A stretch of DNA of 64,000 nt from a virus. The notes beneath the pieces were generated by a model, which was not told where the DNA came from, did no database searches, and saw nothing but the letters and a program-made list of their open reading frames with translations. Numbering within the stretch: position 1 is the stretch's first letter; every line of letters begins with the position of its first letter. Positions 900 to 10,115 of this stretch are shown here, one piece after another. The stretch is taken from positions 32,001 to 96,000 of the IMG/VR virus record IMGVR_UViG_3300044631_002422. The stretch is one strand, 5' to 3'. The position numbers were made by a program, and so were the translations under genes.

Positions 900-992
900 T
901 GTACACGCGTACAGGGCGCGGGCCGTCCCGCCGCGTCGTAAGTCCTAGAGCCACAAGCACTTACGTCAGTCAAGTAGGCAAAGCGTGTGCCA
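899..992 (+). repeat. modular intergenic element, copy 1
   Basis: GTGTAC-N4-GTACAG (899-914), GC-rich segment, CGTAAGTCC-tagagccacaa-GCACTTACG (937-965), minus-strand TGGCAC-N5-TTGC (978-992). Confidence 0.9.
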
Positions 993-1041
993 GTGAAAAA
1001 AAATAAATTTCAAGAATCTTTTTTTATTTTGCTTCAGACTC

Positions 1042-1069
1042 TTGACAAACCTAGCCGATATTGTATAAT
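1042..1069 (+). promoter_or_regulatory. sigma70-type early promoter
   Basis: TTGACA-N16-TATAAT with CCGATA in the spacer. Confidence 0.85.
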
Positions 1070-1100
1070 AAGGAAGTCAATCACACAAGCGAGAAAAAAA

Positions 1101-1343
1101 ATGTACAAAGTAGAAATTGCCACTGTTTACGGCCCCTTTTGTGGTCAAGGCGGTTATGGTACTGAAACCTGCATCGGTTTCGACCGTAGCGTTAAGCGGG
1201 CTTTTGCCAAGGCTCGCGGCCAAGGCAGTCACCGCTACGACCGTAGCCAGATTGTAACCGGCTCGCGTGGTGGCGGCGTTCCCGTTCTGGGTATGGTTCG
1301 GATTTCTCACAACGGAAAAATTATTTCCGAAATTTGGGATTGA
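1101..1343 (+). CDS. hypothetical protein
   Basis: ATG at 1101 lies downstream of the promoter; the longer 987 start overlaps the promoter. Confidence 0.6.
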   Translation: MYKVEIATVYGPFCGQGGYGTETCIGFDRSVKRAFAKARGQGSHRYDRSQIVTGSRGGGVPVLGMVRISHNGKIISEIWD

Positions 1344-1347
1344 CCCC

Positions 1348-1375
1348 TTGACAGTTGTTTTTTCTTTGGTATAAT
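1348..1375 (+). promoter_or_regulatory. sigma70-type promoter
   Basis: TTGACA-N16-TATAAT. Confidence 0.8.
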
Positions 1376-1409
1376 CAGCGTATCAGTCACACACTTTGGA
1401 GAATTGAAA

Positions 1410-1601
1410 ATGGACAGCTTCAGCACCAACCAACATTCCGACGAATTGGACTATCAACCCACCGCTGCCGATTGGAACGAATACCAAGAGTGGTATGACG
1501 GCCAAGAGGCTTGCTACCCAGAGGGTGATGACCTCCTCGACAGCGACCCCATCGACCTTTACGGTGGCGATGACTCGCACTACTGGCAATACGACGAATA
1601 G
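1410..1601 (+). CDS. small highly acidic protein
   Basis: GGAG RBS and its own promoter; 63 aa with 19 D/E and no K/R. Confidence 0.7.
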   Translation: MDSFSTNQHSDELDYQPTAADWNEYQEWYDGQEACYPEGDDLLDSDPIDLYGGDDSHYWQYDE

Positions 1602-1791
1602 GGCTTGACCCGCAAATCCCGCCCAAGTCGCGGGTATGGTATGGGGTCCATTCAAAAACCCCCTATATTCGGGAAAAGAGGTAGGCGAATTAACGTCAAG
1701 GATTTGAGAAGCCTTAGCGGTTCTGTCTTCAGCGGAAAACGGCCTCGAAGTACCATATTTCATTTTGACAGGTGAACACCTGTACACATAG

Positions 1792-1895
1792 TGTCTATGC
1801 TAAACAAAACCGATTTACTTTTTTTTCTTTGGCCGAAATTTAAGGTAGTCTTACTCAAACTAATCTGAATTGCCCCAGCATTTGGGCCAAAGTTT
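1792..1895 (+). repeat. 48-bp repeat family, tandem pair
   Basis: TGTCT..TGCTAAAC..GATTT..TGGCC.AAATTT unit at 1792-1841 and a degenerate unit at 1848-1895. Confidence 0.7.
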
Positions 1896-1940
1896 GCCCG
1901 GCCCGCGCCGCCCTAAGTCCTAGAGCCCCAAGGAGTTACA
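1896..1940 (+). repeat. modular intergenic element, copy 2
   Basis: GC-rich segment then TAAGTCC-tagagccccaa-GGAGTTA (1914-1938). Confidence 0.85.
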
Positions 1941-1976
1941 ACGATTGAAAAAAAACTTTTTTTCTGCTAAAGTTCC

Positions 1977-2004
1977 TTGACATTGTGTGCCGATATAGTA
2001 TAAT
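1977..2004 (+). promoter_or_regulatory. sigma70-type early promoter
   Basis: TTGACA-N16-TATAAT with CCGATA; 27-bp tandem duplication at 1985-2038. Confidence 0.85.
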
Positions 2005-7550: not shown

Positions 7551-7622
7551 AGTATAAGGTTTTGGCGGCCCTGTTGGTAGTTTTGTTATTGAATATAAGG
7601 AACCTTCATTAGAGAATAAATA

Positions 7623-7832
7623 ATGACCGAAAACCCACTACAACTAGCAACTAAAAATTGGATAGAAGCAGTCCAGAAGTATTATGAGAATACTCGTAGT
7701 AATGAATTGACCCAAATTCATATGAGGGGTTATTTCAGCGGTTGGAGCGAACGCGAGATTCTGGAATTTGCGAATAAATTGGCTAAAAATGAACAGGACT
7801 ATCCTTTGTATAGAGAGAACGAGAATAAATAG
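7623..7832 (+). CDS. hypothetical protein
   Basis: 69-aa ORF ending at repeat element 4. Confidence 0.55.
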   Translation: MTENPLQLATKNWIEAVQKYYENTRSNELTQIHMRGYFSGWSEREILEFANKLAKNEQDYPLYRENENK

Positions 7833-7904
7833 GCCCGCCCGCCGAGCCCTAAGTCCTTGTGCCGCTAGGACTTACGTCAATCAAGCAAAGCAACTTTTGT
7901 GCCA
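7832..7904 (+). repeat. modular intergenic element, copy 4
   Basis: TAAGTCC-ttgtgccgcta-GGACTTACGTCAA (7850-7880); minus-strand TGGCAC-N5-TTGCT (7889-7904). Confidence 0.9.
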
Positions 7905-7991
7905 TTCCCGCTCGGGAAAATTCTAGGCAAACCGCAAAAGTTATTCCCGCTCGGGACAGAAAACTTTTTTCTTTTTTTTCTCTCAAGCCAC

Positions 7992-8019
7992 TTGACCTTC
8001 GCGGTCGATAAAGTATAAT
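7992..8019 (+). promoter_or_regulatory. sigma70-type early promoter
   Basis: TTGACC-N16-TATAAT with TCGATA. Confidence 0.8.
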
Positions 8020-8056
8020 GAGAGAGTAAGTCACACACAATGTTTAGGAGTTAGTT

Positions 8057-8908
8057 ATGCCTCGCCGTGTTGTTAGTTGTCAGTTGCCGCCCGTCAAAAC
8101 GTGCAAGAATACCAATTGTGCTAGTGTTGCTATTAGCTACGATGGTTTCTGCAAGTCGCACGCTCCAAGTCGTCGCATTAAGAGCTATAATTCGCGTCCG
8201 CGATGTAGTTCACGATGGGCGAATCCTATCGGTATCGAACTCGAAATGATTCATCCAGAATCCGCAAGCCGTTTGGCACAAGTTGCCCGCTTTGCATGTA
8301 CCGATGCCAGTTTACCCTATGGTGGTGCGGAAATCAAGCTGGTGCAAGATGCCAGTAAGATTACCAATATCGCCGCCGATACTGCTCAACGTGCTGGCCT
8401 TGCTGGTGCAAAGGTTAATCGTAGCTGCGGTTTTCATGTTCATATGGGATTGCCCAATGGTGTCAGCGTTGGATTAGAGCGTCGAAGCGATGCGAACTGG
8501 TCAAGCTGTAACGCCCGTTATCGTTTGTGGGCATTGGCAACAAACTTTCAAGAATACTTTTTTGATATTGTTCCCAAAACTCGCCGCACGAACCACTATT
8601 GCTCGCCGTTGACAAGCGTAACCAATAGTTTACATTCTCACTATGCTTGGCTATCTGTTTCGCACCGTGTTCCTACGGTCGAACTACGGATTCATAGCGG
8701 AACGGTCAATCCGTGGAAAGTCAAAGGTTGGGTCGAAGTCGCTGTGCGTTTGCGTGAAATGGTAAACGCCGCGATTCTCGGAACCCAAGGTTGGGATAAT
8801 CTTCCTAGCAAGAAGTTTGTAGATTATATGGAACCGGGAACACTTGGTTCCAAGTATTTGCTCGCTCGCGAATGTGCTGGTGGCAAACTGGTAAATTTTG
8901 GATTCTAA
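8057..8908 (+). CDS. putative amidoligase (COOH-NH2 ligase, Amidoligase_2-like)
   Basis: GIELE, DASL..GAEI, NRSCGFHVH and TVELR motifs. Confidence 0.8.
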   Translation: MPRRVVSCQLPPVKTCKNTNCASVAISYDGFCKSHAPSRRIKSYNSRPRCSSRWANPIGIELEMIHPESASRLAQVARFACTDASLPYGGAEIKLVQDASKITNIAADTAQRAGLAGAKVNRSCGFHVHMGLPNGVSVGLERRSDANWSSCNARYRLWALATNFQEYFFDIVPKTRRTNHYCSPLTSVTNSLHSHYAWLSVSHRVPTVELRIHSGTVNPWKVKGWVEVAVRLREMVNAAILGTQGWDNLPSKKFVDYMEPGTLGSKYLLARECAGGKLVNFGF

Positions 8909-8959
8909 TTATCGTTCGATAGAACGTACACACACTCACTTTTTTTGGAGAATTTTATT

Positions 8960-9826
8960 ATGTGTCGATTGGCTTATATTCCGGGCAACTGCAAAGTAAA
9001 CCGTACTGATTTGGTGGACCTTTTGCATATGCTGCAAAAGTCGTTTGGTGGCGATGGTAACGGATTCGTTGCCGTTGGTCCCAATGGTGAGGAGTTTAGC
9101 GAGAAGGGTGTCAAGTTAGACAACGATGCTATCGTTATCAAAACTTGGAAACTTATCAAAAAGGGTTGGTCGGTTTACTATCATACTCGCAAGATTAGCG
9201 TAGGCTGGAGTAGCGACAAGCAATGCCATCCGCACCGTATCAACGGTGACAAGTTCAAGGGTTGGCTGTGCCACAATGGAACGTGGAATGATGGAGTACC
9301 GCTTGCCAATTATCTTAACTGTGGTAGCGATACCGCTGCTCTTGCTCGATGTATCGGCAAGTTTGGTATCGAGGGAGCAGAAAAACGCAATCTGTTTCCC
9401 AAGTCGGGCGTGTTTCTTATCTACGGTAGCGAGAATGGCGAATCGCCTATTCATCGCGTAGTCAAGAAATCGGGCGACTTGCAATACTGCCCCAAGACTG
9501 GTATTTGGGCCAGTGAGTTCGAAAAGGATTGGCCGTACTGGTCGCAGGTTTATACCGCAACTGTTGGCAAGCACTTGCTTTGCAAACCAGCCCCACAATA
9601 TATTTCGCCTGCTCGCGGTAATGGTGGCAAGTTTGTGAGTCGCAAGAATAGCCATCCTGATATTATTGATTCAGGAATTCCAGCACCGTGGGACGATGAT
9701 GACCGAACCGTTGTTGATTCGCGTCGCTCGTTGTCGCAACGATTGTGGCCGCAAGACCCTACTGAGTACGAACCAGAGCCAGATTGGGAATATCGTGGCG
9801 GATACCCACGACGCGATTTGAGTTAG
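8960..9826 (+). CDS. class II glutamine amidotransferase (Ntn hydrolase)
   Basis: N-terminal MCR, DGNG, HTR, CHP, HNG and SDT motifs. Confidence 0.85.
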   Translation: MCRLAYIPGNCKVNRTDLVDLLHMLQKSFGGDGNGFVAVGPNGEEFSEKGVKLDNDAIVIKTWKLIKKGWSVYYHTRKISVGWSSDKQCHPHRINGDKFKGWLCHNGTWNDGVPLANYLNCGSDTAALARCIGKFGIEGAEKRNLFPKSGVFLIYGSENGESPIHRVVKKSGDLQYCPKTGIWASEFEKDWPYWSQVYTATVGKHLLCKPAPQYISPARGNGGKFVSRKNSHPDIIDSGIPAPWDDDDRTVVDSRRSLSQRLWPQDPTEYEPEPDWEYRGGYPRRDLS

Positions 9827-9878
9827 TGTGTGTGTGTGTTTGTAGGTGAGTTTTATCTTTTAACTTTAGGAGTATTTT

Positions 9879-9968
9879 ATGAAGAAGTGTACTGGTTGTG
9901 GCCGTCCAATTGAAACTGTTGTTATTCGTCAATGTCCAAAATGCATCAACAATCGCGCTGGATTATAA
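9879..9968 (+). CDS. 29-aa Zn-finger microprotein (MKKCTGCGRPIETVVIRQCPKCINNRAGL)
   Basis: AGGAG RBS, two CxxC; below the ORF-track size cutoff. Confidence 0.6.
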   Translation: MKKCTGCGRPIETVVIRQCPKCINNRAGL

Positions 9969-10021
9969 GTGTGTGTGTGTGTGTGTGATGCCCAACAGCT
10001 TGGGGGACGCAAGTCCCCCGG

Positions 10022-10115
10022 CTGTACGGGTGTACACTACGCGGGCCGCCCCGCGACGCCCTAAGTCCTTGTGGCTCTAAGACTTACGTCAATCCGCTAG
10101 GCAAACCTCATGCCA
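10022..10115 (+). repeat. modular intergenic element, copy 5
   Basis: CTGTAC-N4-GTACAC, GC-rich segment, TAAGTCC-ttgtggctcta-AGACTTACGTCAA (10062-10092), minus-strand TGGCAT-N5-TTGC (10101-10115). Confidence 0.9.

Follow-up and report, generated by a model that had tools for sequence, protein, structure and literature searches.

Sigma-54-type boxes in fixed register with early-region palindromes of an uncultured lake phage as candidate docking sites for a host polymerase

We analysed a 64-kilobase (kb) stretch of DNA from an uncultured lake phage (hereafter the window; bases 10147-74146 of a 77.5-kb viral record, G000, judged 49% complete) and found three boxes of the form TGGCAY-N5-TTGC, the -24/-12 promoter consensus of sigma-54 (RpoN), on the minus strand of its early region, i.e. 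the part of the genome that bears repeated boundary cassettes. Each box faces a palindrome at a nearly constant distance. Our preferred reading, held tentatively and falling somewhat short of an even chance, is that these boxes are genuine sigma-54-type elements on which host sigma-54 RNA polymerase docks.

Minus-strand boxes face palindromes of the early boundary cassettes

The early region is partitioned by ~13 copies of a composite cassette, which runs from a TGTACA-rich box (in relatives, a first hairpin) and a GC-rich hairpin, through a 26-29-base-pair (bp) palindrome (CGTAAGTCC...GGACTTACG), the sequence GTCAA and a variable slot, to A- and T-runs and a near-consensus sigma-70 promoter (TTGACA, 16 nucleotides (nt), TATAAT) with GCCGATA in its spacer. 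Where a sigma-54-type box is present, it occupies the variable slot, its position being tied to the palindrome and not to the sigma-70 promoter, which follows 41-88 nt further on. The initial annotation of the window had described three such boxes (Table 1), 12, 13 and 12 nt from the CTTACG arm. All three are present, and direct counting from the arm ends (965, 7876 and 10088) gave the same distances. As also proposed there, the boxes stand back-to-back with sigma-70 promoters: a plus-strand TTGAC(A/C)/TATAAT pair lies 50-100 nt beyond each of them, and the consensus promoters of cassettes 1, 4 and 5 thereby point the opposite way. Palindrome copies 2, 3 and 6 had been listed as lacking a box and indeed have none; a search allowing one mismatch found no degraded box beside any of these other palindromes.

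When set against shuffled sequence, as the annotation had suggested, the box count stands out, with three matches to TGGCAY-N5-TTGC in the 64 kb and no others, 0.38 expected and none of 100 shuffles reaching three. A reversed-pattern control was run beside the pattern counts. Over the entire 77.5-kb record the pattern occurs five times, each copy lying on the minus strand with a palindrome 12-13 nt away, while the reversed control scores zero. The two additional boxes lie just upstream of the window and share strand and palindrome-side position with the boxes inside it. The GG and GC doublets of the window boxes are exactly 10 bp apart. Judged from spacing alone, minus-strand transcription starts are predicted at ~966 (an A on the minus strand), ~7877-7878 and ~10089. 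DNA contigs from four lake runs contained no variants inside the three boxes, at a power too low for this to serve as evidence.

Agreement with the sigma-54 consensus extends beyond the search pattern

We assembled two sets of boxes, namely 76 distinct sites for base composition and 90 distinct boxes, from the phage and its relatives, for geometry. At positions outside the search pattern, the base preceding TGGCA is a T in 61 of the 76 sites and the base following TGGCAY is a purine in 75; T also precedes TTGC in 58. Likewise, all 29 intergenic sigma-54 sites of Salmonella listed in Table 3 of PMC3844500 carry a purine after TGGCAY. Boxes away from palindromes continue with A or T after TTGC in 42 of 46 cases, and the yeaG and STM0577 sites of Salmonella (PMC3844500, Table 3) each recur letter for letter as a phage 15-mer. 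To judge from this composition, a match to the sigma-54 consensus at ~12 positions by chance, or through an unrelated regulator, would be very unlikely. An alternative description of the box as a GGCA-N7-TGCC dyad, whether a small hairpin or a dyad-symmetric operator, was rejected, as the C after TTGC that symmetry calls for occurs in only 10 of the 76 sites.

Core, orientation and spacing are kept in diverged relatives

Neither megablast nor tblastn returned a close relative among cultured phages, and the amidoligase protein as query found nothing in viral contigs. In IMG/VR, we identified a sister phage (G001/G002; ~72% nucleotide identity) and, via the DUF932 protein, more distant relatives, and a scan for the palindrome edge plus the box contributed ~20 true relatives among many chance hits. 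The box is thereby documented in ~20 related lake-phage contigs, one of which (L120) has 12 copies in 11 kb. In three near-complete genomes the boxes crowd into the early region, with 9/9 inside 4.7 kb of 201 kb (G007), 6/7 inside 2.2 kb (G008) and 8/9 inside 20 kb (G009), at reversed-pattern counts of 0-1.

Across the 76 sites the core is kept, with free variation in N5 and in the linker, the 10-11 nt between box and palindrome. The G001 ortholog of the box 2 cassette, for example, retains its box with a different N5; the ortholog of the box 3 cassette has none. When cassettes were located independently of the box and the slot after the last hairpin was then scored, the outcome was bimodal, 14 slots holding a perfect box, four a one-mismatch and one a two-mismatch version, and 47 scoring at background. 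Among the 90 boxes used for geometry, a palindrome arm flanks the -12 side of 34, invariably at 12-14 nt (17, 16 and one box, respectively), and an arm on the -24 side was found in two doubtful cases only. As all 34 keep this distance while the linker varies, it is orientation and distance that are fixed, and not the intervening sequence. Conservation of spacing in relatives, to which the annotation had pointed as informative, was thus found: motif, orientation and the 12-13 nt palindrome distance persist in diverged relatives in which N5 and linker have changed. The boxes therefore appear to be an optional, selectively maintained module of the boundary cassette, alongside its hairpins, slot, UP element and sigma-70 promoter.

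In L029, a relative devoid of sigma-54-type boxes, the slot that separates hairpin and early promoter is taken by another repeated motif, TGACCTAACGTGTCA / GTGACAC... (8211-8290, 9777-9870 and 5053-5130).

Forward boxes and a promoter-like hub

Relatives also carry the box in other arrangements, namely as forward boxes with AT-rich N5 (e.g. TTGGCATGATATTTGCT) upstream of sigma-70 promoters, as tandem reverse boxes with 26-28 nt periods, and as reverse-forward-reverse triplets with gaps of 8 and 5 nt. In addition, a hub module is conserved in L120 (6961), L129, L064, L080 and at contig positions 7474-7760 of G000 (window -2672 to -2386, just outside the window). In it, three upstream repeats, which read GCAAAATGCTACAC in the relatives and are of the GCCAATGAGCAG type in G000, are followed by an A-run and a forward TGGCAC-N5-TTGC with TCTATATA behind it; in the relatives a gene directly follows, with no sigma-70 promoter before it. 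The G000 copy comprises twin palindromes, a reverse box (7567), the GCCAATGAGCAG-type repeats and a forward TGGCACGGGATTCGC plus TCTATATAG (7733). With a start 12 nt beyond the GC, the predicted transcript would begin on the leader GATATAAGAAAG, which likewise opens the sigma-70 cassettes. The G000 hub box ends in TCGC, like the Salmonella glnA site (PMC3844500). As the most promoter-like instance, the hub supports real use of sigma-54 by this phage clade. The forward hub copy and the forward boxes and arrays of the relatives mean that the module is not purely antisense. The annotation's picture of boxes aimed antisense into the palindrome hence describes the palindrome-adjacent boxes and is incomplete for the clade, given the forward boxes, tandem arrays and triplets of the relatives. 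A small hairpin at promoter distance after forward boxes was also considered and proved not to be general (25 downstream vs 16 upstream).

A probable planctomycete host, likely to encode sigma-54

The open reading frame (ORF) at 28007-29044 (plus strand) encodes a pseudopilin-like protein with a DUF1559 (SBP_bac_10) domain and a prepilin N_methyl motif. Its full-length homologues (30-38% identity) are almost all from metagenome-assembled genomes of Pirellulaceae, Planctomycetaceae and other Planctomycetota, many of them from lakes, and Atlas clusters agree with this affiliation. The family was found in 0/14 control genomes and, among eight related records, in G000 and its sister G002 only. With this gene as the best clue, the host is probably a freshwater planctomycete (Planctomycetota/Pirellulales). 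A Sigma54_DBD protein is encoded in 11 of 12 planctomycete genomes that carry DUF1559 homologues, and the strict consensus TTGGCAYR-N4-TTGCW occurs 36 times in six of these genomes as compared to seven times for the control (~5-fold).

Three early proteins (69-548, 6745-7167 and 7341-7550) match the mycobacteriophage GP88 and L5 gp82 families and DUF7326. An actinobacterial host, as hinted at by the L5 gp82/gp88-like proteins, gained no support: a search of eight records recovered no WhiB, and no other actinophage marker is present despite these matches.

We searched the phages themselves for a binding partner. No sigma-54 DNA-binding domain (PF04552) scored above the cut-off in 10 related records, a single 13-bit match containing stop codons. 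Six near-complete genomes were compared for gene content, with box-bearing G000 and G007-G009 set against the box-less group (G005, G006), and no ORF tracked box presence; G000 is closer to G003, G005 and G006 than to the box-rich G007-G009. In the 20 early ORFs of the window, Pfam recovered no helix-turn-helix (HTH) or other DNA-binding domain. Boxes that recur in two lineages with few early genes in common, and for which no partner gene was found, fit a conserved host protein better than a phage regulator. The perfect boxes of this phage and many relatives, set 12-13 nt from palindromes at early-gene borders, suggest that the host's sigma-54 factor is recruited.

A tentative docking model and its competitors

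The preferred reading can be put as a mechanism. Host sigma-54 RNA polymerase would dock on the boxes with promoter geometry and could wait there as a stable, silent closed complex facing the palindrome. Indeed, sigma-54 holoenzyme sits at promoters in a stable inactive state, and many of its sites in E. coli and Salmonella are intragenic or antisense (PMC4591121, PMC3844500). Since the -12 GC always lies 12-13 nt from the arm, which is the promoter-to-start distance, a start would fall at the base of the hairpin, with +1 landing on the conserved purine of GACGTAAG. Firing by an ATP-dependent activator would then produce an antisense RNA whose 5' end is sealed in a hairpin and which extends into the preceding early cassette from its 3' end. 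That sigma-54 binds and fires here and affects early genes is what we infer from the motif, its enrichment, orientation, spacing and conservation, and from rpoN in the likely host lineage. The broader proposal, namely that in a large, likely planctomycete-infecting lake-phage clade such docking sites launch antisense RNAs that silence upstream genes, or else soak up scarce sigma-54, we consider doubtful.

Several observations weigh against the docking model. Of 30 palindrome-adjacent boxes, only 14 continue with A or T after TTGC, and the window boxes have C, T and C at this position, where sigma-54 prefers A or T. The annotation's assignment to sigma-54 is partly supported, in that comparative evidence speaks for motif identity and start-site geometry, and falls short in the A/T after TTGC, missing from two of the three window boxes. 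A search of 10 related phage records for an enhancer-binding protein (PF00158) found none, so that any activator would need to come from the host or be a phage protein that went unrecognised. The hub has enhancer-like repeats and box 2 has a paired dyad beside it; boxes 1 and 3 show no evident site of this kind. The hairpins are not followed by a terminator in the antisense direction. Close relatives G005 and G006, and likewise G004, have cassettes without boxes, and G003 has one palindrome-adjacent box only. The boxes of relatives, 20-28 nt apart, both tandem and opposed, look more like an operator array; at such packing the footprint of a holoenzyme is too large for several to bind at once. 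Finally, a single acquired gene underlies the host assignment, and at ~36% the G+C content of the phage is well below the ~48-69% of candidate hosts.

The hairpins do not decide on the strand. Antisense hairpin RNAs fold marginally better than sense RNAs (z-scores -0.8 to -2.4; not decisive), and G.U pairs, first taken to show that folding of the palindrome is restricted to sense RNA, were dropped as an argument, since sense G.U (30) and sense A.C (27) pairs are equally common across relatives, the hairpin unit occurring in both orientations.

An unlikely alternative is that the boxes are operators of another DNA-binding protein resembling sigma-54 in specificity, either an unrecognised small early phage protein or a host regulator, whose half-sites TTGGCA and TTTGCA, one helical turn apart, might serve in control of the early promoters or hairpins. 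The box can be read as a T(G/T)GCA direct repeat with an 11-bp period, the arrays of 26-28 nt period and the head-to-head and tail-to-tail pairs resemble operator clusters, and the different motif filling the slot in several L029 cassettes suggests a general operator position; moreover, the early ORFs are mostly small and of unassigned function. However, such a protein would have to match the sigma-54 consensus by chance at ~12 positions, among them the A/T behind TTGC and the purine behind TGGCAY, which is very unlikely. Nor does any phage gene track the boxes in the comparison of G000 and G007-G009 with G005 and G006, G000 even being closer to the box-less genomes, and the 20 early proteins contain no detectable HTH domain.

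It appears rather improbable that the boxes bind host sigma-54 or its holoenzyme without ever firing, be it as parking sites, as roadblocks or insulators at cassette borders, or as decoys that titrate sigma-54; in the decoy version, scarce sigma-54 would be drawn off host stress regulons as phage DNA accumulates. The exact distance from GC to hairpin base in 34/34 boxes equals the promoter-to-start distance and would be needless for a decoy, the hub copy resembles a working promoter in every feature, and close relatives manage without boxes. What speaks for silent binding is that the holoenzyme binds stably in an inactive form and at many intragenic and antisense sites in bacteria (PMC4591121, PMC3844500), that the phages have no activator gene, and that the dense arrays and opposed triplets of relatives would raise local occupancy and make no sense as promoters. 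In addition, candidate host genomes have ~5-7 strict-consensus sites each, with which the 5-12 per replicating phage genome could compete.

That the boxes are functionless, as chance matches or passengers of a duplicating cassette, is highly improbable and already close to refuted by core conservation, the bimodal slot and the fixed geometry, for although only a subset of cassettes is boxed, G001 lacks the box 3 ortholog and G005 and G006 are box-less, the core stays perfect while N5 and linker diverge, orientation and spacing are strict in 34/34, and boxes recur in two lineages sharing few early genes.

Relation to known regulatory systems

With bacterial sigma-54 promoters such as glnAp2, pspA and hypA, the phage boxes share the TGGCAY-N5-TTGC core with GG and GC one helical turn apart; most also have a T before TGGCA and a purine after TGGCAY, and those away from palindromes mostly A/T after TTGC. 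Some phage 15-mers are identical to validated Salmonella sites, and the hub repeats lie at enhancer distance. Unlike these promoters, the phage boxes reside in the early region of a virulent-type phage, mostly point off genes into a palindrome at a fixed 12-13 nt, and come in arrays or opposed triplets with no activator gene at hand. The inactive intragenic and antisense sigma-54 sites of E. coli and Salmonella (PMC4591121, PMC3844500) likewise present the consensus in the 'wrong' orientation and, like the phage boxes, may either keep polymerase in a silent closed complex or give rise to antisense RNAs or to RNAs with long 5' untranslated regions. In contrast to the phage boxes, which are modular, cluster between genes and keep register with a hairpin, those bacterial sites are single and scattered inside genes.

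In lambda (OR/OL) and phi29 (p4), repeated short protein-binding sites are fixed beside strong early promoters, and at some promoters only. The phage boxes are similar in their repetition and in their patchy presence at promoters. However, the lambda and phi29 operators are dyads or paired with a known phage protein, whereas the box is asymmetric, equals a host sigma consensus and has no partner gene. A further parallel, for the decoy reading only, is 6S RNA, which sequesters sigma-70 holoenzyme by mimicking an open promoter: in both cases a nucleic acid would hold a specific holoenzyme out of circulation, although the trap would here be duplex promoter DNA on the phage genome and the sequestration is hypothetical.

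Virulent phages use, modify or replace sigma-70-type transcription, and a literature search of incomplete coverage found no report of sigma-54 sites in the early region of a virulent phage. If true, either version of the broader proposal, antisense silencing or capture of sigma-54, would make this the first virulent phage to employ the sigma-54 system. As sigma-54 polymerase is silent until fired by an ATPase, it would provide the phage with a switch under tight control or with a means to trap a host factor; were the decoy reading true, host stress responses that depend on sigma-54 would be blunted. The regular box-to-hairpin geometry yields precise predictions, i.e. starts at ~966, 7877 and 10089 and loss of binding upon mutation of GG or GC. 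Planctomycetes are, to our knowledge, a host group with almost no phage biology, and the boxes would offer a first look at transcription control in planctomycete phages.

Feature coordinates and further observations on the early region

Table 1 Boxes, palindromes, promoters and dyads of the early region, in window coordinates
Feature	Position	Strand	Remarks
Sigma-54-type box 1	978-992	-	TGGCAC-acgct-TTGC = TGGCACacgctTTGC; -12 GC 12 nt from palindrome arm
Sigma-54-type box 2	7890-7904	-	TGGCAC-aaaag-TTGC = TGGCACaaaagTTGC, then T; 13 nt from arm
Sigma-54-type box 3	10101-10115	-	TGGCAT-gaggt-TTGC = TGGCATgaggtTTGC; 12 nt from arm
Palindrome copy 1	937-965		CGTAAGT...ACTTACG; faced by box 1
Palindrome copy 2	1912-1940		No box
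Palindrome copy 3	4473-4501		No box
Palindrome copy 4	7848-7876		Beside box 2
Palindrome copy 5	10060-10088		Beside box 3
Palindrome copy 6	11521-11549		Inverted cassette closing the early block; no box
Sigma-70 early promoter, cassette 1	1042-1069	+	TTGACA 1042-1047, 16 nt with GCCGATA box, TATAAT 1064-1069
Sigma-70 early promoter, cassette 4	7992-8019	+	TTGACC 7992-7997, 16 nt, TATAAT 8014-8019
Sigma-70 early promoter, cassette 5	10156-10183	+	TTGACA 10156-10161, TATAAT 10178-10183
Small dyad, two copies	7905-7918, 7944-7957		TTCCCGCTCGGGA(A/C); directly upstream (box orientation) of box 2

One copy of the small dyad next to box 2 is also kept next to the box in G001; the two copies might work together as an operator or as an enhancer. 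A G(C/T)CGATA box is common to the early promoters. Here it lies in the 16-nt spacer (1048-1063, 7998-8013 and 10162-10177); in some relatives it directly follows the -10 element and forms, as GTCGATATAAGAAG, the conserved start of the leader. At its centre the palindrome is asymmetric, and this centre (AGAGCCACA or its complement) is found in both orientations among the copies (937-965, 4473-4501 and others), and in relatives whole hairpin units with a fixed GT/AC arm asymmetry likewise occur in both orientations.

Contigs from other lake samples skip 352 nt after promoter 1 (1085-1438), are without the 27-nt promoter duplication at 1985, and break or join to other cassettes at palindromes (e.g. 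10050-10092); such skips and joins may reflect cassette shuffling or an assembly artefact. No Rfam family matched the cassettes. Elsewhere in the early region, positions 3004-3065 (plus strand) match the Rfam Pistol ribozyme over the full model, with 47.7 bits against a gathering score of 34.5. Finally, a RecA-like gene at 55423-57525 (plus strand) is interrupted by a LAGLIDADG/homing-endonuclease domain that looks like an intein.

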